Origin: Planctomycetales bacterium
GTDB taxonomy: Bacteria > 4484-113 > JAFGCY01
DNA length: 32,000 nt
Assembly (NCBI GenBank): GCA_022646745.1
Contig: CP060262.1
Coordinates: 960,001 to 992,000, forward strand
Reading direction: 5' to 3'
In this document: one piece after another, positions 2 through 12,470 of the stretch
Layout of the letters: the number at the start of each line of letters is the position of its first letter
Numbering within the stretch: position 1 is the first letter of the stretch
Program-made: the position numbers and the translations under genes
The notes under the pieces: model-generated
Told to the model about the DNA's origin: nothing
What the model saw: the letters and a program-made list of their open reading frames with translations, nothing else
The model's database searches: none

Positions 2-643
2 TGGGCGATGGAATACGGCCACCTGGCGCAGGACCCGGTGCCGGCTGAACTGGCAACGCAGCGCGGGCTGGACCTGCCGCATGCGCTGACCCAGGGTGAA
101 GTGCAGGCAATCCTCGATGCCACGCGCGGGCTGGATCCACTTTCCGTCCGTGACTCCGCGATGCTTGAGACCCTCTACGCCTCTGGGATGCGGGTCAGCG
201 AACTGACAACGCTGCGCCTGGCCGACCTGCACCTGCCGGAGGGTTTCGCGATCGTGACCGGCAAGGGCAGCAAGCAGCGCCTGGTACCGCTTGGGCATTA
301 CGCGATCGAGGGCCTGAAGGCCTATATCGGCCCCGTGCGGGAGTCGATCTGTCCGACAGCGCCCCTGCATCCGGAGGTGTTCCTCACCCGGCGCGGGGCG
401 ATCAGCCGCTCGATGGTGTTCCGGCTGGTACAGAAGTACGCCCTGCTGGCCGGGGTGAAGAGCCATGTCTCGCCGCATACCTTCCGCCATTCCTGTGCCA
501 GCCATATGCTGGAGGGTGGCGCGGACCTGCGCCTGGTGCAGGAACTGCTGGGACATTCCAGCCTGACCACCACGCAGATCTACACGCATATCGACAAGCG
601 GCGGCTGCGGGAGGTCTACGACCGCGCCCATCCCCACGCGTGA
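2..643 (+). CDS. xerD: Tyrosine site-specific recombinase, XerD/XerC family, C-terminal catalytic part (5' end lies outside the window)
   Basis: The frame is open from base 2 (WAMEYGH...). Motifs seen: SVRDSAMLETLYASGMRVSEL, GKGSKQRLVPLG, HTFRHSCASHMLEGGADLRLVQELLGHSSLTTTQIYTHI. These supply the catalytic R...H-x-x-R...H...Y set and closely resemble E. coli XerD. Stop TGA at 641-643. Confidence 0.85.
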   Translation, partial: WAMEYGHLAQDPVPAELATQRGLDLPHALTQGEVQAILDATRGLDPLSVRDSAMLETLYASGMRVSELTTLRLADLHLPEGFAIVTGKGSKQRLVPLGHYAIEGLKAYIGPVRESICPTAPLHPEVFLTRRGAISRSMVFRLVQKYALLAGVKSHVSPHTFRHSCASHMLEGGADLRLVQELLGHSSLTTTQIYTHIDKRRLREVYDRAHPHA

Positions 644-671: not shown

Positions 672-1001
672 GTTGTCAACACGCAGCAGCCTGACAGGTT
701 GATAAGTCCGCTATCCACTGTTGACAATCTGTGCGCCGGATTGCTTTTGGGAATTTTCCGGGACAGCCCACGCAGCTGCCGGATGTCCGCCAGGCCTGGT
801 ATCCCCGTATGCCCTGTCCCGGACTGGCCCCAGGGAGATGGCAACCAGCCACATGCCCGTCAGTTGTGCCGATCTATCAACCAGTCAGGTTGACAACACA
901 GTCCCGTGGTTGATAAGTGAAGGAAATCCAGGGAATTTCAGAAATTACCCGGATTTCTTATTGACAACGGCTTGCTGGGGGAGTATCATCACATTGTCAA
1001 G
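672..1001. promoter_or_regulatory. Cluster of 9-bp palindromic boxes GTTGWCAAC (putative operator array)
   Basis: Boxes: GTTGTCAAC 672-680, GTTGACAAT 720-728, GTTGACAAC 889-897, ATTGACAAC 960-968 (overlaps the -35), ATTGTCAAG 993-1001 (at the predicted transcription start). Two copies of GGTTGATAAGT lie at 697-707 and 908-918. Confidence 0.4.
961..989 (+). promoter_or_regulatory. Near-consensus sigma70-type promoter
   Basis: TTGACA (961-966), exactly 17 nt spacer, TATCAT (984-989). The predicted start is about 996. An AT-rich consensus match is conspicuous in a GC-rich genome. Confidence 0.7.
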
Positions 1002-1416
1002 GCAGTGATGCTGATGGCGGAAACGCCGGAGTCACCGCCCTCCAGCGAGGCCCCCGGGTCGCGCTGGGGCAAGACAGGCATGCGGTTGGCAACAACCTCG
1101 TGCATCCCGCGGTGGCCTGTCCACCGTCGGGGAAGAGGCGGCTTCTGGGTGGCAACACCCAACTGGCCAGCCTGGGACCGCGCCGCAAGGCAGGTCCATG
1201 GCATGCCGGGACGCCTGGTGGCAACACCGGGCGGGTGCAGTGGCAACACCGCACTCCCGAGATGGTTAGGCTTCGGTTTAACCGGAATGCCGCAGGCCGG
1301 CGGCAACGGTGGCAACACCGATGCTGACGACCAAACCGACAGCGGGTTCGCCCGCTGTCACCCCCGCCCCGTGCGGGGGCCGAAGCCCGGAGCAATCCGG
1401 GCTTCACTATTTTCTT
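996..1416 (+). ncRNA. Candidate novel ~420-nt highly structured RNA with reiterated GCAA-tetraloop hairpins
   Basis: Bounded by the promoter at 961-989 and the terminator at 1382-1416. There are eleven local hairpins. Six carry GCAA loops (1084-1097, 1147-1160, 1175-1197, 1214-1231, 1235-1254, 1307-1320). One carries GAAA (1016-1027). Two carry UUCG (1264-1283, 1338-1359). These loop classes appear only when the + strand is read. The only ORF here (972-1421) is W/R/P-rich and merely translates the repeat. Confidence 0.6.
1382..1416 (+). terminator. Rho-independent terminator
   Basis: 9-bp perfect stem GAAGCCCGG (1382-1390) / CCGGGCTTC (1397-1405) with a 6-nt loop, followed by ACTATTTTCTT. 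Confidence 0.75.
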
Positions 1417-1439: not shown

Positions 1440-1550
1440 GGTCTGGCGCTGCGGCTGCGCATTCGCGCATCCGGGTCGCGCGGAAGTTGCGGGGTTCGGC
1501 GGTCTGGCGCTGCAATCCGGCTAAGCCGGATTGGGTCGCGCTGAAGTTAC
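1440..1550 (+). repeat. Two tandem ~60-nt modules
   Basis: GGTCTGGCGCTGC occurs at 1440-1452 and 1501-1513. GGGTCGCGC(G/T)GAAGTT(G/A)C occurs at 1473-1490 and 1533-1550. Each module encloses a different internal hairpin: TGCGC-ATTC-GCGCA versus AATCCGGC-TAA-GCCGGATT. Looser copies of the 18-mer lie at 1713-1730 and 1779-1796. Confidence 0.65.
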
Positions 1551-1823
1551 TGGAGGCCAGATGTCAATCTGGCAATATCTTCAAGCGAAAACTCTCCTGT
1601 TTGTGCTATCAGCGATTGGCTAAGCCATGAGCTGTATTGCAGACCGTCGAGTGCTCGCACGAGACGGAAAGAGAATACGGCCTGGGCCTGCGCTGGCGCT
1701 ATCACTGCCAGCGGGTCGGCCGGAAGAAACATCGCTGCCCCTGAAGGTGCATCGCGCAATCAGTCAGGCCGAAGGCGTGATCGGCCTGAAGTTGCGTACT
1801 TCTGCAATGACAAGTAGAGACTT

Positions 1824-2130: not shown

Positions 2131-3453
2131 CTAGGGCATCCACAGCATGATCCCCTCGTTCGTCAGCACGATGCACTGCTGTCCCTGCTCGGTGTCCAGC
2201 ACGACTGAGCCCTGGATGGTGCCTACCGGTCGGCTGCCGGCCCTTTCGTTCCCGGCTGCGTCGAACACGCGCATGCCGTGGTCATTGCCATAACCACCTG
2301 GCGTCACAAGCATGAATGGACGCAGGGTGCCAGGCGGCCGGTAGGGTTCGACCTGGCAGCCGTCCATGTCCCGGCTCCAGTTCAGCTTGAAGGCGGTTTC
2401 GCCACCCAGCACTGAATCGGTCCAGCCTCCGGTCCAGATCAGGTCGCTGCAAGCATCACCACTGATGTCAAAGGCAGCCAGCAGCTCCCTGTCCGGCAGG
2501 CCAAGCCCGGTAATGGACTGGCCGAACCCCAGGGAAACCAGGCTGATTGCCTGCTGGTCCCATTCAAGCACTTCCGCAAGGCCGTCACCGTCCACGTCGC
2601 CAAATCCACGGAATGACAGGCTGCGGCCCTGTCTCAGCTCTGCATTGCCGCTTATCACCTGCCGCTCTGATCCAAGCAGCACGTAGCCTGTGCGCGACTC
2701 ATCAAGGCAAAGCAGGTCCTCCAGCCCATCGCCGTCAAAGTCCGCCGGGGGCCAGTTCAACAGCGGATGGCAGGCCGGCCTGAGCTGGCGGGCGATCCCG
2801 GCGTTGTCAACGGTGAATCCGCCGGAGGGATGGTCCAGCACAAGCAGGTCTCGTCCGTCACCATCCGGGTCCCAGCCGTACAGCAGCCGCGCCCTGCCAT
2901 CCTGCCCACGTTGCGGGCTGATGCTGCCATAGACCTGCCAGCTGGTGGGATTGATCCAGCTAAGGAGCATGCGTTGCTGGTTCAGTACGATGATTTCCGC
3001 TTCGCCGTTGCCATTCGTATCCGCCAGGCAGATTGATGCTGAGTCAGCGAATTCGAGGGAATTGAGCCGGCGGCGCATCAGCCAGTTCCAGCCGCGCTTC
3101 AATTCCGCAGGGGCCTGTCCTTCATCAATGGCACTGTCCCGAGACTTGAAATGGAAGTCATCTGCCCTCCCATCCTGCAACTCCGGACGCTGATTGGCGA
3201 AATCCTGTGGAGCTGCAGGCTCCTCCTCAACAGGCTGGCGCACTTCCGGCTTCCACACCTCTTCCTGATACGGATGCACTTCTTCAACGGCACGGATCTC
3301 CGTCCCACCGAGGCCATGGAAGATGATCAACCAGAGCATGGCGACCAGCAGCATGGAACCGCCGCAGCCGTATGTCACCATGTCCGGAATCAACTGCGGG
3401 ATGTCCTCCGGCCGGGGTGGCTGTCCATTGCCTTCCGTGCGCCATCCGCTCAC
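2131..3453 (-). CDS. Membrane-anchored FG-GAP/VCBS-repeat (integrin-alpha-like beta-propeller) protein
   Basis: 440-aa ORF with an N-terminal hydrophobic helix (GGSMLLVAMLWLIIFHG). Repeated Ca-binding-like DxDGDG motifs: DTNGNGEAEII, DPDGDGRDLLV, DFDGDGLEDLL, DVDGDGLAEVL. The GTG start overlaps the upstream stop by 4 nt (GTGA at 3450-3453). Confidence 0.8.
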   Translation of the reverse strand: MSGWRTEGNGQPPRPEDIPQLIPDMVTYGCGGSMLLVAMLWLIIFHGLGGTEIRAVEEVHPYQEEVWKPEVRQPVEEEPAAPQDFANQRPELQDGRADDFHFKSRDSAIDEGQAPAELKRGWNWLMRRRLNSLEFADSASICLADTNGNGEAEIIVLNQQRMLLSWINPTSWQVYGSISPQRGQDGRARLLYGWDPDGDGRDLLVLDHPSGGFTVDNAGIARQLRPACHPLLNWPPADFDGDGLEDLLCLDESRTGYVLLGSERQVISGNAELRQGRSLSFRGFGDVDGDGLAEVLEWDQQAISLVSLGFGQSITGLGLPDRELLAAFDISGDACSDLIWTGGWTDSVLGGETAFKLNWSRDMDGCQVEPYRPPGTLRPFMLVTPGGYGNDHGMRVFDAAGNERAGSRPVGTIQGSVVLDTEQGQQCIVLTNEGIMLWMP

Positions 3454-4670
3454 GGATACACCAGCACCTTGTCAAAGGCGCAGACAACCAGGTGTTCCAC
3501 GCCGTCGGCATCCGCCACGACCTCAAGCCCGGTGCAGTACTTCTCCAGTGCTTCGTGGTATTCCACGCTGCCCAGCGGGCCATAGGCCACCAGTTCGGTG
3601 CCCATCTCGGCCTCCGGCACGGTCCACATCGACTTCCGGCCGTCGCCATCATGGTCGAACACCGCCAGCGGGATGCGGTACAGCCACATGTCGCTGAACA
3701 TGCTGCCCTCGCCCGGGTTCTGCAGCTCGCGGACGCGGCCCTCGGTATGCTCGTAGAAGTAGTCGCCCCAGCTCGGCAGCAGTTCTGTCACGCCGTCGCC
3801 ATCGATGTCCGCCACCATCTCGAACATCGGCCCCATCGTCATCAGCGGATCATCAGGCAGGGTCAGGCTGCTGCGCTTGCCGTCCACGTGCACGATCATC
3901 TTCACCGGACCGTCGCCGAACAGCACCGAATAGCGTCCGTCGCCGTCCATGTCCACCAGCAGGCAGTCCTGCTGGAACACCCCGTCGCTGTCACCGTCGC
4001 TGTTGGCAATGCTGAGCAGCTCGGTTCCGCCCTGGTTGTACAGCTTGCAGTGCGAGTAGTCCTGCTCATGCAGCAGCAGTTCCATGTCGCCGTCCCCGTC
4101 GCAGTCCGCCGTGGCGCGCCAGTCAGGCAGCAGCATGCCCTCGAAGGTATGCAGCGAGTTCATGTCGAAGTCAGCCACGTAGGTGCGCGGGGTGCTGCCG
4201 TCCTCGTCGTCATACACCACGTCGTCGCAGCCGTCCCCGTCGAAGTCCCAGAACTCCACGCTTTCGTTGTCAATCTCGGGCATCCAGTGGTGGCGGCGCA
4301 CCATCTTGCCATCCAGGCTGACGATGTCCACATCAGCATCGCCGGAACTGTCCCAGAACACCAGCTCGCGCAGCCCGTCGCCGTCGGCATCGACGCTGCG
4401 CATGTAGGTCACGGGTACGAAGATGTTGGTCGGGTGGTAGTCCAGCTCGCGCCAGGCCAGCTGGCTGCCGCTGAGCATGCCGGCCTCGCGCACCTCCGGC
4501 CGCATTTCGTCCACCGCACGCTGGATGCTCCAGGCCATCAGGCCGATCAGCACCACGATGAGCACCAGGCAGCTGCCGCAGCCCACCAGCCAGGGCGTGT
4601 AGTTCGCCTTCGGCTTCTGGTACACCGGCGGCGTGTAGCGCACCGGATCGTGGTAGCTCCCTTGGTTCAT
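3450..4670 (-). CDS. Membrane-anchored FG-GAP/VCBS-repeat protein, paralog of the downstream gene
   Basis: 406-aa ORF with a TM helix (WLVGCGSCLVLIVVLIGLMAW). Six DxDGDG-type repeats: DADGDGLRELV, DFDGDGCDDVV, DCDGDGDMELL, DMDGDGRYSVL, DIDGDGVTELL, DHDGDGRKSMW. GGGGGAG Shine-Dalgarno 5 nt upstream of the ATG at 4670. Confidence 0.8.
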   Translation of the reverse strand: MNQGSYHDPVRYTPPVYQKPKANYTPWLVGCGSCLVLIVVLIGLMAWSIQRAVDEMRPEVREAGMLSGSQLAWRELDYHPTNIFVPVTYMRSVDADGDGLRELVFWDSSGDADVDIVSLDGKMVRRHHWMPEIDNESVEFWDFDGDGCDDVVYDDEDGSTPRTYVADFDMNSLHTFEGMLLPDWRATADCDGDGDMELLLHEQDYSHCKLYNQGGTELLSIANSDGDSDGVFQQDCLLVDMDGDGRYSVLFGDGPVKMIVHVDGKRSSLTLPDDPLMTMGPMFEMVADIDGDGVTELLPSWGDYFYEHTEGRVRELQNPGEGSMFSDMWLYRIPLAVFDHDGDGRKSMWTVPEAEMGTELVAYGPLGSVEYHEALEKYCTGLEVVADADGVEHLVVCAFDKVLVYP

Positions 4671-4712
4671 GGCTGCTCCCCCTTGCGGGTCTGCCTCAAA
4701 TATATCAGCAGC

Positions 4713-5021
4713 CTAGCCGAAGATCAGCGTGCCGATCAGGTTGGCGACCGCCGCAGTGCCGCCGATGATCCAGGCCGGCTTCCAGTCGCAGCTCAGCACC
4801 ATCTTGGCGGCGAAGGCCGTACCGAGGAACAGCACCGCTGCGCCAAAGGCAGCTGACAGGAATGGTACGAACAGCAGCGGGGAAAGCAGGATGCCGAGGA
4901 TCAGCATCACCACGAAGCTGACGATGGCGACCACCAGGCAGCGCCAGATGTCCACGTATTCCAGCTCTGCAATCGAAGCGCCGATGTAGATCATCACCAC
5001 ATGTCCAATGAAGAAGAGCAC
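4713..5021 (-). CDS. Small polytopic membrane protein (hypothetical)
   Basis: Strongly hydrophobic ORF with 3-4 predicted helices. The preferred start is the GTG at 5021, preceded by AGGGGG plus 6 nt. The ORF track's longer start is at 5069. It lies 42 nt upstream of the FG-GAP gene on the same strand. Confidence 0.6.
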   Translation of the reverse strand: MLFFIGHVVMIYIGASIAELEYVDIWRCLVVAIVSFVVMLILGILLSPLLFVPFLSAAFGAAVLFLGTAFAAKMVLSCDWKPAWIIGGTAAVANLIGTLIFG

Positions 5022-6275: not shown

Positions 6276-7403
6276 TCATCCCAGGCCGGCCCTGAGCAGC
6301 AGGCCGCGCACGGCCTCGAGGATGCGTTCGCTGGCGCGGCCGTCACCGAAGGGGCTCGGTGCATGCGGGTGGTCGCCACGCAGCAGGCGCGGCAGTTCCT
6401 CGCGGGCGGCATTGCGGATCTCGGAGGCGGCGGTGCCGACCACGCGGGTGTAGCCGGCGGCGACCGCCTCAGGCCGTTCGGTCTCGCGGCGCAGCACGAG
6501 CGCGAAGCGGCCGAGCATCGTGATCTCCTCCTGGATGCCGCCGCTGTCCGTCAGGATCAGGTCGCTGACCCGCATCAGGTTGACAAAGGCATCGAAGCGC
6601 GGCGGGTCAGTCAGCAGCACGCGTCCATGCCCGCCGAGGTGGCTGCGGATCTGGTTGCGCAGCTGCGGGTTGGGATGCCAGCAGAAGCAGGCCATCGCCG
6701 TCGGATGGTCGGAGAGGATGCCTTTGATGCCCTCGCAGATCGAGTCCATGTTGCTGCCCCAGTTCTCCCGGCGGTGGCTGGTGACGAGCAGCTTCGGCCC
6801 GACATGCCGCGTGTAGTCCTGCAGCTCATCCGGGAAGCGGTAGTCATCGCGCGCCGCGACGCGCACCGCATCGAGCGCGGTATTGCCGGTGACGTGCACC
6901 TCGCCGCCGAACACGCCGCGGTTGGCAAGGTTGGCAGCGGCCTCACTGGTCGGGCAGTAGTACTGCGCCGCCAGCATGTCAACGGCGCGGCGGTTGAACT
7001 CCTCGGGGAATGGTTCCTGGATGGTGCTGGTGCGCAGCCCGGCCTCCACATGCCCGACCGGGATGCGGCGATGGAAGGCGGCGAGCGCGGCGGCGAAGCT
7101 CGTCGTGGTGTCGCCGTGCACCAGCACGAGGTCCGGCTGCAGGCGGTCCAGCGCGGCCCCGACACCGTTCAGCACCCCGGCTGTGATGTAGTCGAGGCTC
7201 TGCTCCTCCTGCATCAGGTTCAGGTCGACGGCCGGTGTGAGCTGGAACAGCTCCAGCACGTCGTCAAGCAGGCCGCGGTGCTGGGCGGTGACGATCAGCT
7301 CGAAGTCGATGTCCGGGTCGTCAATCAGGAGCCTGACGACGGGCGCCATCTTGATCGCCTCCGGGCGCGTGCCGAAGATGCTGGCAACCAGCGGTCGTTT
7401 CAT
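6276..7403 (-). CDS. wecB: UDP-N-acetylglucosamine 2-epimerase (non-hydrolysing)
   Basis: The N-terminus IFGTRPEAIKMAPV, then HGDTTT, and the ~375-aa length are typical of WecB/MnaA. There is a 4-nt start/stop overlap with the upstream gene. Confidence 0.9.
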   Translation of the reverse strand: MKRPLVASIFGTRPEAIKMAPVVRLLIDDPDIDFELIVTAQHRGLLDDVLELFQLTPAVDLNLMQEEQSLDYITAGVLNGVGAALDRLQPDLVLVHGDTTTSFAAALAAFHRRIPVGHVEAGLRTSTIQEPFPEEFNRRAVDMLAAQYYCPTSEAAANLANRGVFGGEVHVTGNTALDAVRVAARDDYRFPDELQDYTRHVGPKLLVTSHRRENWGSNMDSICEGIKGILSDHPTAMACFCWHPNPQLRNQIRSHLGGHGRVLLTDPPRFDAFVNLMRVSDLILTDSGGIQEEITMLGRFALVLRRETERPEAVAAGYTRVVGTAASEIRNAAREELPRLLRGDHPHAPSPFGDGRASERILEAVRGLLLRAGLG

Positions 7404-8452
7404 GCCCTCGTCCCCACGAGCACCGCGATCAGTGCAAAGACCGCGGCGAATCCGTAAAGTGACAACACGGTGTTGCGGTGCGCGCGGCTGCGCAGCAGTT
7501 CGTCTCGCAGAGCGCCGTACTCTGCCTCCGGCATGGTGGCACGGTAGTCACGGCTCAGGCGGGCCAGCAGGCGGTGGTGGATATGCTTGTCGTCCGCCTG
7601 GGTGATCGGCCGCCTGGCCAGCAGGCGCCGCCCGATGGCGAACAGGGTGTCGCCGATCGGCAGGACGAGGATCAGCACCGGCAGCACGAAGCTGATCAGT
7701 GCGGCCTGCTTGTAGAGGCCGACGAGGCTGATCACCGCCAGCATGTAGCCGAGCGAGAAGGCCCCGCCGTCGCCGATGAAGATCTTCGCCGGGTGGAAGT
7801 TCCAGGGCATGAAGCCGATGATCGCACCGGCCAGCACCAGGCAGAGCGCGAGGCTGAGGATGGCGTTGGGCAGGTCCGGGCGGAACATCGCGATCATCAT
7901 GAAGGCCAGCGTGCAGATCAGCCCGATGCCGCTGGACAGGCCGTCGAGGCCGTCAATCCAGTTGAATGTGTTCACCACGCCGACGATCCACAGCACGGAG
8001 ACAAGGATCGAGAGCCACTCCGGCAGCACGTAACTGCCGAACACGGAGCCGATGCGCAGGCCGACCGCGCCGCCCTGCAGCACCACGAAGCTGGCCACCA
8101 CGAGCTGCATCAGCAGGCGCCACAGGGCCGGGATGCTTTTGAGGTCATCAAAGAAGCCGATGAAAAAGAAGCCGCACAGCCCGGCGTATATCAATGGAAT
8201 CATCCGGGCCTGGCTGGCGCTGAGCTGGATCAGCTCGCCCCAGACGCCGAAAGTGGTGAGGGTCATGCCGACGGAAACGGCGGTGAAGATCGCCACGCCA
8301 CCCAGCCGCGGGGTGCCGGAAGTATGCACCTTGCGCTCGCCGGGCATGTCCAGCAGGTCGTAACTGCGGCACAGGCGCACCACCAGCGGAGTGATCAGGG
8401 CGCTGAGTACCATCGATATGATGAGCAGACCGGCGAATACCGCTGTGGGCAT
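7400..8452 (-). CDS. wecA: Glycosyltransferase family 4: undecaprenyl-phosphate N-acetylhexosamine-1-phosphate transferase (WecA/TagO/MraY-like)
   Basis: Polytopic 350-aa membrane protein with FFDDL and NTFNWIDGLDGLSSG signatures of the MraY/WecA family. Cotranscribed with wecB. Confidence 0.8.
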   Translation of the reverse strand: MPTAVFAGLLIISMVLSALITPLVVRLCRSYDLLDMPGERKVHTSGTPRLGGVAIFTAVSVGMTLTTFGVWGELIQLSASQARMIPLIYAGLCGFFFIGFFDDLKSIPALWRLLMQLVVASFVVLQGGAVGLRIGSVFGSYVLPEWLSILVSVLWIVGVVNTFNWIDGLDGLSSGIGLICTLAFMMIAMFRPDLPNAILSLALCLVLAGAIIGFMPWNFHPAKIFIGDGGAFSLGYMLAVISLVGLYKQAALISFVLPVLILVLPIGDTLFAIGRRLLARRPITQADDKHIHHRLLARLSRDYRATMPEAEYGALRDELLRSRAHRNTVLSLYGFAAVFALIAVLVGTRA

Positions 8453-8494
8453 GCGCGCCTATCCTAACACCTGCGGCGGTTACAATAACGCGCT

Positions 8495-10739: not shown

Positions 10740-10799
10740 CGTTTGCTGATCTGTTCTGCGGGACTGCGGATTGCTCCGCTGCCCGGTTGTCAACCGGCC

Positions 10800-12470
10800 T
10801 TATTCAGGCAGGTTCTCGGCAGCCACGAAGATGTGGTTGCTCTCGTTGGAATCACCGTCCTGGGCGAAGACCTCGGTGTTGGTGAAGTTCGGGTCGAAGG
10901 TCGCCGTACCCGGCGTACTCCAGCCGTTGGTCACCATGAACTCGAAGCCGGCCATCCAGGTAAGGGTGTTGACATCGATGCTGTCACCGCTGGCATCGCT
11001 CATCGTGTTGGAGATGAAGCTGAACTCAGTCATACCGTCGGTGTTGAAGGAGTTCGTGGCGATGATGTAGGCGGTGGCCTCACTGATGCCGTCACCGGTC
11101 ACGGTGGCCCAGTCGGCATCGCCGTCATCCTTGAAGATGAACACGCCGGCCGGGGCGATCTCGATACGGAAGTAGATCTTGTTGGTCTCGGTGCCGTCAG
11201 CAACCGCGGACACGTAGAAGGTGGTATCCACGAAGGATACATCCCAGGTGACCACGCCGGTGGCCTGGTCGATGCTGGTGGCAGCAGCGGCCGGGTTGGC
11301 GGAGATGGTCACGCCGGCGTTGCCGGTGATTTCACCACCACCGTTGTTCGGGGTGTCGTACACGGAGAAAGTGAAGTTCTCGGCAGCCTGGCTCGAGGAA
11401 TTGATGATCCACGGGGTGCCCTGGGAACCGTCACCGCCGCCGCCCGGGGTCGGGGTGTCAAGCTCAATGCTCGGCTTCTCGTTCGGGTCGCCACCAACAG
11501 CATCACTCGGGGTGCCGAGCTCGCTCGTGGCGCTGACGCCGCGCACCCAGTACTCATCGCCGGCACCGGGGGCCGCGACGGTGTAGGTGAAGCGCTTGCG
11601 CTGCAGGTTGGTGCCGGTGGCGGTGTTGAAGGCCACATTCTCAAGCACGGCAACGACATCAGCATCGCCACCGCTCGGCTTGTCAGCGGAGTTGCCAGCG
11701 TAGACGTTGTAGCCGCCGTTGCAGGAGTTGCCGAAGTTCACGCCGATCGGAGTGATGTCCGCCAGGGTGATCAGGCCGTTCTTGTCGCCGTCAACCACGC
11801 TCAGGGAATCCTCGACGGTGGCGCCGGAGGCGTCCTTGTTGAGGTTGATGCCGAGCGGGGTCAGGTCGGAGATGCCGACCTCACCGTTCTGGTCATAGTC
11901 GGCCGGGTTGTTGTACAGCCAGGTCAGGGTGTCGGTGCCATCCCACTCGATGTTCAGCGCGCCGCCGTTCACCGTGGTGTTGACCTTGCTGGTCTCACGG
12001 ATAAGCGGGGTCGGACGCTTGCGGAAGTTCACCGTCGCCAGGGTGCCGTCGCCACTAAAGCCGCTGTGCCAGTCAGGATTGGCAACCAGCTGGCCGCTGT
12101 AGATGGTGCCGCGCTCCTGCTCATGGGTCAGGCTCAGGCGGTCCGCATCGGAGGCGATCAGGTCGGAGTTGGTGACGCCCATCGGGATCACCATGTCCGG
12201 GTTGTAGTTCATGGAGAAGTAGAGAGCCTTCAGGTCCTGTGCACCTTCAACGTTGATGCTCACCTGGTAGTAGTCCTCTCCCTCCTTGGTGGTCGTGGTG
12301 ATGCCTTCCACGGTCGAGCCGTTGAAGAAACTTTCATCCATGACGTTCAGTGAGAAGGCCTCCGCAGTATCCCGCTCGGGGCTGCTGTTGCCAACATTGA
12401 GGGTGCTGCAGGATGCACTCAGGATGAGGGCAAAAGCGAGCACCGTGCCTAACCAGTACCTTTTCAGCAT
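10800..12470 (-). CDS. Secreted/surface protein with a cohesin-like domain, a type-I dockerin pair and Ig/FN3-like domains
   Basis: Signal peptide MLKRYWLGTVLAFALILSASC. The cohesin-like segment runs from QVSINVEGAQDLKALYFSMNYNPD to GDGTLATVNFRK. Dockerin EF-hand pair: DYDQNGEVGISDLTPLGINL and DGDKNGLITLADITPIGVNFG. GAGGTAGG Shine-Dalgarno upstream of the ATG at 12470. Confidence 0.75.
   Translation of the reverse strand: MLKRYWLGTVLAFALILSASCSTLNVGNSSPERDTAEAFSLNVMDESFFNGSTVEGITTTTKEGEDYYQVSINVEGAQDLKALYFSMNYNPDMVIPMGVTNSDLIASDADRLSLTHEQERGTIYSGQLVANPDWHSGFSGDGTLATVNFRKRPTPLIRETSKVNTTVNGGALNIEWDGTDTLTWLYNNPADYDQNGEVGISDLTPLGINLNKDASGATVEDSLSVVDGDKNGLITLADITPIGVNFGNSCNGGYNVYAGNSADKPSGGDADVVAVLENVAFNTATGTNLQRKRFTYTVAAPGAGDEYWVRGVSATSELGTPSDAVGGDPNEKPSIELDTPTPGGGGDGSQGTPWIINSSSQAAENFTFSVYDTPNNGGGEITGNAGVTISANPAAAATSIDQATGVVTWDVSFVDTTFYVSAVADGTETNKIYFRIEIAPAGVFIFKDDGDADWATVTGDGISEATAYIIATNSFNTDGMTEFSFISNTMSDASGDSIDVNTLTWMAGFEFMVTNGWSTPGTATFDPNFTNTEVFAQDGDSNESNHIFVAAENLPE

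Follow-up and report, generated by a model that had tools for sequence, protein, structure and literature searches.

A predicted structured RNA of about 420 nucleotides that reiterates one GCAA-capped hairpin top downstream of xerD in an uncultured bacterial lineage

CsrB/CsrC and RsmX/Y/Z are stand-alone promoter-to-terminator RNAs with many stem-loops, in whose loops and linkers one short element (GGA/ANGGA) recurs and binds CsrA/RsmA; the copy number of the element varies by lineage and the sequence outside it drifts. A small GNRA-type hairpin top can also serve as a sequence-specific protein site, as in lambdoid boxB, a single pentaloop hairpin in the nut site of an mRNA leader whose GNRA-like loop is read together with its closing pairs by the N protein. 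OLE, GOLLD, ROOL and raiA, on the other side, are large RNAs with many helices, strong covariation, abundant GNRA tetraloops and conserved junctions. Few bacterial non-coding RNAs longer than 400 nucleotides (nt) have extensive covariation and no assigned function, and earlier RNAs of this kind each yielded unexpected biology (the OLE membrane ribonucleoprotein (RNP), the ROOL and GOLLD RNA cages). Here we examined a 32,000-nt stretch of contig CP060262.1 (Planctomycetales bacterium, assembly GCA_022646745.1; hereafter the window), in which an initial annotation had proposed a structured RNA at positions 996-1416. Our analysis indicates that this segment is a predicted plus-strand structured non-coding RNA with a conserved fold, compensatory changes and its own transcription signals, ~420 nt long in the window and ~445 nt in two relatives.

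In kind, the RNA resembles known RNAs of two groups, the decoys or scaffolds with many hairpins and the large ornate RNAs. It shares with the Csr/Rsm group the stand-alone promoter-to-terminator layout, the many stem-loops repeating one short element, a copy number that varies between lineages and drift outside the element. In contrast to that group, the repeated loops are GCAA, the conserved element includes two closing pairs, any partner is putative, and conservation of the junctions and long-range helices is much higher; no GGA/ANGGA hairpin loop was found among the loops of the RNA and no CsrA-like open reading frame (ORF) in the window. Its size (420-445 nt), many helices, strong covariation, abundant GNRA tetraloops, conserved junctions and lack of an assigned function are shared with OLE, GOLLD, ROOL and raiA. 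Unlike these classes, it reiterates one identical hairpin internally, its distribution as seen here is much narrower, and it gave no match to their covariance models. The hairpin top would be comparable to boxB as a putative protein site of the GNRA type, although the locus carries no sign of antitermination or of a phage.

The RNA lies within a 1.5-kb gene-free interval between xerD and a convergent FG-GAP repeat gene. The promoter, terminator and hairpins listed in the initial annotation were all present at the coordinates it gave. Two promoter-like sites were detected in 500-2300, one of them the sigma-70-type promoter of the RNA, which is preceded by an A/T-rich stretch (932-959). Its -35 element ATTGACAAC (960-968) is invariant among relatives (6 lineages compared), and its -10 element is TATCAT or TAGAAT, with identical spacing in all relatives. 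The terminator stem is invariant in seven sequences. For segment 990-1420, the predicted folding energy of the plus strand is -249.6 kcal/mol (z = -7.3 relative to dinucleotide shuffles), and the minus strand gave z = -5.0. No tRNA or tmRNA was identified in the window by ARAGORN.

Six further copies of the RNA were recovered from metagenomes and one NCBI metagenome-assembled genome (MAG), with pairwise identities of 75-96% to the window. A consensus structure computed from the seven sequences with RNAalifold (alignment A4) comprised 17 helices and contained every hairpin of the initial annotation; two short invariant helices involving the U-tract and the 5' end were dropped, and 139 pairs were scored. 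Standard pairs filled 96.8% of the cells across these pairs, compared with 92.0% in column shuffles and 32-45% in slid structures. Both sides had changed in 26 pairs, compared with 13.7±2.2 in column shuffles (0/500 reached 26) and 3-6 in slid structures. Compensation was densest in P2 and P9, and in P7a, P7b, P7c, P3 and P4 (Table 1). The seven sequences belong to one clade and two pairs of them are close; the shuffle test is inflated by shared ancestry, so that the slid control is more telling. The column tests treat columns as independent. The conserved helices contained 82 G·U cells compared with 9 A·C cells, an excess that identifies the plus strand as the RNA strand. On the minus strand the same helices were 89% paired. 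Loops of the GNRA and UNCG types occur on the plus strand only, which bears out the loop polarity that had been noted. The helices P5, P7 and P8 are long-range and organise the hairpins, a feature that goes beyond the initial annotation.

We considered whether the segment is instead a protein-coding gene (ORF 972-1421, or a 265-aa ORF in relative L342) or the cis-regulatory leader of a downstream gene. In several copies a single reading frame runs open across the entire segment, and gene callers have annotated ORFs over the RNA. Substitutions in ORF 972-1421 were spread over the three codon positions (32/36/37 compared with relative L129 and 32/25/30 compared with L132) with no third-position excess, the ORF had no Pfam match, and 1-nt indels were present even against a copy of 94.6% identity, shifting the frame between close relatives. 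Taken with the conserved plus-strand fold, the even substitution across codon positions, the 1-nt indels and the lack of a Pfam match indicate a structured RNA rather than a protein gene. Two protein libraries (15 billion proteins) were searched, one of them exhaustively with HMMER across 1.84 billion protein representatives, and the only homologues returned were spurious ORFs of the same clade. As for a leader, a strong terminator ends the RNA and no plus-strand gene follows, the next gene being convergent. We give hardly any credence to either the coding or the leader explanation. In public records, hypothetical proteins of 129-265 aa are annotated over the RNA or over its 3' flank (Table 1). 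They are spurious ORFs arising from high G+C, and the annotations over the RNA, for example R3F46_04145 in GCA_041395205.1, should be removed.

The hairpins of the RNA repeat one sequence. The 10-mer GTGGCAACAC is present in exactly 4 copies (1149, 1218, 1240, 1309), all on the plus strand, and nowhere else in the 32 kb; with at most one mismatch there were 11 matches compared with 2.9 expected (0/100 shuffles reached 11). Its 8-mer core TGGCAACA is present five times within 230 nt (1087, 1150, 1219, 1241, 1310), each time as a hairpin top, at irregular core-to-core spacings of 63, 69, 22 and 69 nt. A census of the loops gave GCAA (7), GAAA (1), UUCG/YYCG (3) and two pentaloops. Internal repeats 63 and 69 nt apart revealed four tandem modules of ~63-69 nt (P3+P4, P5+P6, P7b+P7c and P8+P9), which were absent from the initial annotation. 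They are diverged copies of one two-hairpin unit, have the sequence ..GGCGG..GGUGGCAACACC in common and align at the hairpin core only. The RNA is thus built from tandem ~65-nt modules, each presenting the 8-nt top U-G-[GCAA]-C-A.

Repetition of this kind raises the prospect of a palindrome cluster of the repetitive extragenic palindromic (REP) or bacterial interspersed mosaic element (BIME) type, that is, a structural DNA element or an naRNA4-like by-product and not a dedicated RNA gene. Such elements, including naRNA4 (REP325), are likewise clusters of GC-rich palindromic hairpins in intergenic regions, present in hundreds of dispersed copies in both orientations, and this explanation implies that GGTGGCAACACC hairpins are dispersed in both orientations at unrelated intergenic sites. 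The RNA does consist of reiterated GC-rich palindromes in an intergenic region, it has a weak naRNA4 match (18.4 bits, E 2.1), and a truly dispersed repeat unit lies directly 3' of it. In contrast to REP elements, all 5-6 cores lie at one locus and on one strand, inside a conserved non-repetitive scaffold. Across ~130 kb of own and related DNA the core clusters in the RNA alone, with at most four hairpin-forming TGGCAACA copies outside it (window, L342, L346, L129, L132, L130 and three more distant relatives). Furthermore, conservation extends to the orthologous position, to promoter and terminator and to the non-palindromic junctions, and the asymmetry of G·U over A·C pairs points to selection on one RNA strand. 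We therefore regard a palindrome cluster as highly improbable. Of the findings that the initial annotation had named as telling against a structured RNA, those that sequence can address (a known-family match, dispersal of the palindrome and a coding pattern of substitution) all came out negative.

Comparison of the seven sequences revealed strong constraint on the repeated top. In the five UGGCAACA cores, 39 of 40 columns were invariant, compared with 62% of the other columns (Fisher 5e-7) and 66% of the other paired columns (Fisher 3e-6); at P3, two of the sequences have UGGCAACG as the core and the other five UGGCAACA. The base pair that adjoins the core on its outer side covaries, for example from G-C to A-U in P5a and P7b, so that outer stems differ and stay complementary around a constant core, as previously noted from the window. 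Other GNRA loops do vary. The terminator loop is GUAA in L346, and the P6 loop is GAAA in L132, which indicates that P6 is constrained only to GNRA. In L346 and L347 a sixth core hairpin, GAUGCAGUG-GCAA-CACGGCAUC, is present as a clean 22-nt insertion in the P7 multiloop, just 5' of P7a. The number of tops thus changes by insertion of a whole hairpin (5 compared with 6).

The reading that we prefer, tentatively, is that the RNA is a multivalent platform for a hairpin-specific partner, acting as a sponge or as an RNP scaffold. Identical tops on otherwise independent stems suggest one common ligand, and the additive gain of a site suggests multivalency. The tops would be recognition sites for one partner, most likely an RNA-binding protein and possibly an oligomer, which would read the GCAA loop plus its two closing pairs. 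As a sponge of the CsrB/RsmZ kind, the RNA would titrate the partner and so keep it from other targets; as a scaffold, it would assemble several copies of the partner into a defined RNP. The geometry of the sites would be fixed by the invariant junctions together with helices P5 and P8, which never vary.

Several observations weigh against the platform. Conservation of the junctions and of some helices equals that of the hairpin tops, which fits a compact tertiary fold at least equally well. Shared ancestry accounts for part of the invariance, the seven sequences being drawn from one narrow clade. The conserved neighbours (xerD, a small membrane protein, a lipoprotein-like ORF, a type II secretion system (T2SS)-type ATPase and extracytoplasmic function (ECF) sigma genes) included no candidate partner, none of them being RNA-binding. 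Finally, no convincing single copy of the hairpin was seen in an mRNA leader in the ~130 kb of own and related DNA, and hence there was no sign of a regulon to relieve. The two neighbouring small proteins were considered as partner and set aside; one is a membrane protein and the other lipoprotein-like, and neither has a family match.

The main rival to the platform is a compact self-folding or homo-oligomeric RNA in which the GCAA loops would dock into helical receptors, within or between molecules, as in group I/II introns, RNase P, ROOL, GOLLD and OLE. On this view the RNA would be its own machine or cage. The RNA contains eight GNRA and three UNCG/YYCG tetraloops in ~420 nt, its junction nucleotides (CAAGAC, GAAG, GCA) are invariant, and the unvarying pairs of P5 (8/8) and P8 (11/14) could be receptors. 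RNA-only oligomers are also reported for large ornate bacterial RNAs (PMC12286853). On inspection by eye, no 11-nt or other recognisable receptor motif was seen, and a scan for extra pairing across the 7 sequences gave no convincing pseudoknot or long-range stack. Tetraloop-receptor contacts normally need not share the same two closing pairs in each hairpin, and the extra hairpin of L346 and L347, which came without other change, is easier to understand as an additive site than as part of a tight fold. On this evidence we consider self-folding or self-assembly rather unlikely.

Taken together, the variation in hairpin number and the stronger constraint on the core make a sponge or self-assembly function more plausible. 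This is as far as the second half of the initial interpretation can be taken from sequence, while its first half, a structured non-coding RNA with a reiterated UG-GCAA-CA top on the plus strand, is well supported by the comparative data. A broader proposal, possible but on the doubtful side, is that the RNA is the founding member of a new ornate bacterial RNA class from an uncultured, deep-branching lineage, which arose by module duplication and whose tops nucleate a defined multivalent particle (an RNP with several copies of a hairpin-specific protein, or an RNA-only homo-oligomer). Its design is unusually legible, in that a rigidly conserved scaffold carries one invariant GNRA top 5-6 times and the copy number shifts between close relatives. 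The 8-nt top could be used as bait or as a mutation target, a direct experimental handle, and the RNA would establish, for a phylum without cultured members, a new element of RNA-protein or RNA-RNA recognition.

Modularity also suggested a precursor or antitoxin-like repeat RNA, in which the hairpins would be endoribonuclease sites (ToxI or Cas6-type) yielding several small RNAs. ToxI and CptI of type III toxin-antitoxin systems are likewise tandemly modular RNAs between a promoter and a terminator, and here each module contributes one hairpin and the number of modules varies. However, the direct repeats of ToxI are 34-40 nt long, nearly identical to one another and processed by the toxin encoded next to them, whereas the modules of this RNA are highly diverged apart from the top, and Tandem Repeats Finder (TRF) detected only a 9-nt x2 repeat in 996-1416. 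The hairpin spacing is irregular, the segments between hairpins are themselves conserved helices, and no cas or toxN-like gene is present in the window. No conserved plus-strand ORF, and thus no toxin ORF, follows the RNA in 1417-2130, which is filled with repeats and unalignable between lineages. Such a precursor is accordingly improbable.

The homologues are L342, L215, L346, L347, L132/L170, L129 and a partial copy, L130. A search of relatives downstream of xerD located the RNA there. It lies directly 3' of xerD in every relative contig that extends to that upstream gene, and L129, L130, L132 and L342 came from contigs of XerD-search matches. L342 is 97% identical to the window across the xerD-to-RNA interval. 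The RNA was found wherever XerD is at least 84% identical, and was absent downstream of xerD where XerD is 67-73% identical; other genes are present there and no match to an RNA profile was obtained. A metagenome scan with the invariant 5' 18-mer gave 82 matches, of which 2 were genuine (L215 and L170, the latter identical to L132). L346 (NCBI GCA_041395205.1, 1.88-Mb contig) and L347 (ENA assembly) were reached by a protein-library query with the spurious ORF. The label on one relative's contig is that of GTDB candidate phylum 4484_113. Within the reach of these indirect searches, the family is narrow and confined to a single clade. A phage link was considered and rejected, as three scans of viral contigs contained no homologue. 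A genome-collection scan for the pattern GTGGCAACACCN{5,35}GTGGCAACACC gave at least 120 matches in many phyla, and none of those listed resembles the RNA. Among the matches listed, nearly all GTGGCAACACC pairs within 35 nt fall in arrays spaced in multiples of 3 nt; from spacing alone these are most simply read as coding repeats of the Gly-Asn-Thr type (GGC-AAC-ACC). Since such pairs are common in many phyla, the palindrome alone is not diagnostic of the RNA.

To compare the RNA with known families, the whole window was scanned with cmscan against Rfam 15, which gave 0 matches at the gathering score. A permissive scan of 600-2200 (E<=10) returned five sub-threshold fragments, and no RNase P, tmRNA, 6S, signal recognition particle (SRP) or Y RNA was among them; for the first four this agrees with what had been judged by eye in the initial annotation. 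The best were naRNA4 (18.4 bits, gathering score 59.5) and BjrC68 (18 bits, gathering score 39), the latter corresponding to the terminator. Membership of RNase P, tmRNA, SRP, 6S, Ms1, OLE, GOLLD, ROOL, HEARO, STAXI, Csr/Rsm, ToxI or YrlA is not supported by these data. In the literature as far as searched, no earlier description of the motif or of a similar RNA was found, and the RNA appears to represent a new family without detectable relation to described ones. A further rival is a highly divergent known RNA missed by the Rfam models (RNase P RNA, tmRNA, 6S, SRP RNA, or the Y RNA of a Ro60 homologue). In its favour are a size and promoter-terminator layout like those of housekeeping RNAs, the presence in L342 of a Ro60/Rsr gene ~8.5 kb upstream, and the poor sampling of the lineage. 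Against this, the permissive scan gave noise alone, ARAGORN found no tmRNA, no GGAAAGUCC or ACAGAA core was seen by eye, and relatives with the 67-73% identical XerD have no such RNA after xerD. With regard to YrlA-type features, the 5' and 3' ends of the RNA do not pair and there is no T-arm; a YrlA-like RNA beside rsr in L342 appears to fill the Y RNA role. A missed known RNA is thus very improbable.

The Ro60/Rsr homologue of L342 (L342:1223-2737; TROVE 4.7e-10, vWA_Ro60 6.5e-6) is located ~9 kb upstream of xerD. It is preceded by the YrlA-like Y RNA (L342:926-1034; 42.9 bits, E 1.8e-7, below the gathering score of 69), which lies ~10 kb from the RNA described here, and a second T-arm-like element is present near L342:640-665. 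Together these would form a divergent Y RNA-Ro locus of an uncultured lineage. The RNA at 996-1416 was rejected as the Y RNA of this Ro60, since the YrlA-like RNA already adjoins rsr.

Table 1. Coordinates of the predicted RNA, its helices and the surrounding features (window positions unless a relative is named)
Feature	Position	Strand	Remarks
XerD-type tyrosine recombinase gene, 3' end	8-643	+	Pfam Phage_integrase, 1e-42
Upstream box 1, GTTGTCAACA, palindromic	672-681	+	invariant in 6 lineages
Upstream boxes 2 and 3, GGTTGATAAGT ... CTGTTGACAATCTGTG	697-733	+	invariant blocks
Upstream boxes 4-6, TATCAACC, GGTTGACAACAC, GGTTGATAAGT	868-918	+	conserved in 5-6/6 lineages
Sigma-70-type promoter TTGACA-17-TATCAT	961-989	+	11/12 consensus match (consensus scan)
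Whole predicted RNA, ~420 nt	996-1416	+	17 helices, 5 UG-GCAA-CA hairpins, terminator as final helix
Invariant 5' end AUUGUCAAGGCAGUGAUGCUGAUGG	~993-1017	+	25 invariant columns
P1, encloses hairpin P1a	1001-1009/1031-1039	+	3' strand varies, 5' strand does not
P1a, GGCG-GAAA-CGCC	1015-1028	+	
P2 hairpin, YYCG loop	1040-1069	+	5 pairs with compensatory changes
P3, core copy 1, GGUUG-GCAA-CAACC	1078-1103	+	2 covarying pairs
P4, CCCG..GGUGG-CCUGU-CCACC..CGGG	1106-1131	+	2 covarying pairs
Junction GAAG after P4	1132-1135	+	invariant
P5, encloses P5a	1136-1143/1165-1173	+	8/8 pairs invariant
P5a, core copy 2	1146-1161	+	G-C to A-U compensation beside core
P6, GGACC..GCC-GCAA-GGC..GGUCC	1175-1197	+	1 covarying pair
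P7 multi-branch domain	1199-1292	+	closing helices 1199-1204/1287-1292 and 1207-1210/1256-1259; covariation in helices 9-13 (P7 domain)
P7a, core copy 3	1212-1233	+	
P7b, core copy 4	1235-1254	+	
P7c, UUCG hairpin	1264-1283	+	
P8 long hairpin, core copy 5 (CGGUG-GCAA-CACCG, 1307-1320)	1295-1332	+	11/14 pairs never vary
P9, GACAGCGGG-UUCG-CCCGCUGUC	1338-1359	+	6/9 pairs covary
P10 hairpin	1361-1379	+	1 covarying pair
Intrinsic terminator, 10-bp stem (1382-1405), GCAA loop, U-rich tail ACTATTTTCT	1382-1416	+	consensus scan
Two copies of ~55-nt repeat unit GGTCTGGCGCTGC-[variable GC-rich hairpin]-GGGTCGCGCKGAAGTT	1440-1553	+	
FG-GAP repeat gene, convergent with RNA	2131-3453	-	
Spurious ORFs over RNA or 3' flank	L342:11250-12047; L346:10001-10429 (R3F46_04145); L347:622-1122; L129:7530-7919		

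Upstream of the promoter, the DNA from xerD onwards is unalignable between lineages apart from sharp conserved blocks (alignment A5, 6 lineages). These include CTGTTGACAA.CTGTG at 718, TATCAACC at 868, GGTTGACAAYA at 887, a second GGTTGATAAGT at 908 and the start region ATTGTCAA at 993. Boxes 2 and 6 recur in inverted form as box 4, and GGTTGATAAGT is present in 2 copies in the window (697 and 908) compared with 0.1 expected. Boxes 2-3 double as a weak promoter, TTGATA-18-GACAAT (699-728, 9/12 match). In all, seven to eight conserved GGTTGAYAA / TTRTCAAC boxes in both orientations were observed, at 672-733 and 868-918 and also at 960-968 and 993-1000. They could be tandem promoters, operator sites or DnaA-box-like 9-mers; by eye, TTATCAACC and TTGTCAACA match TTATCCACA at 7/9 positions.

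Downstream of the terminator, the ~55-nt unit resembles a small dispersed element of the REP type or of the miniature inverted-repeat transposable element (MITE) type. At least one unit follows the terminator in every sequence with DNA beyond it (window, L342, L346, L129, L132), always on the strand of the RNA, and even the near-identical L132 and L170 have different numbers of copies. Degenerate copies are present near 1700-1800 of the window, and in the relatives the units were located at L129:7680-7730, 11382-11430 and 12012-12090, L132:1909-2305 and L346:10250-10300; those of L129 include copies away from the RNA. Integron attC sites were considered for these units and rejected by eye, as they are without RYYYAAC/GTTRRRY ends. 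Just past the stop codon of the convergent FG-GAP gene are the heptanucleotide repeats TGCCTTC x6 (2023-2075) and CCACTGC x2.7 (2110-2128). On the minus strand these read AGGCAGA/AGGCAGT; AAGGCAG occurs twice in the RNA, and the repeats are not conserved in L132.

The rest of the window consists of ordinary chromosomal genes (epimerase, glycosyltransferase, ClC channel, MiaB-like enzyme, AddAB, MacB/FtsX, ankyrin). Long ORFs on opposite strands overlap, as at 3372-4856 (+) and 3450-4670 (-), with similar pairs at 6276-7457, 7400-8467 and 10743-12470. Such overlaps are expected at 62-67% G+C; one ORF of each pair has Pfam support, except at 10743-12470, where neither does. Gene content beyond the RNA differs between the FG-GAP genes of the window (2131-4670), L129:8037-11278 and L132:2596-5110, and downstream in L129 a run of small ORFs includes one with an Imm40 immunity-protein domain. 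As this content differs between close relatives, the xerD-RNA junction borders a variable region.

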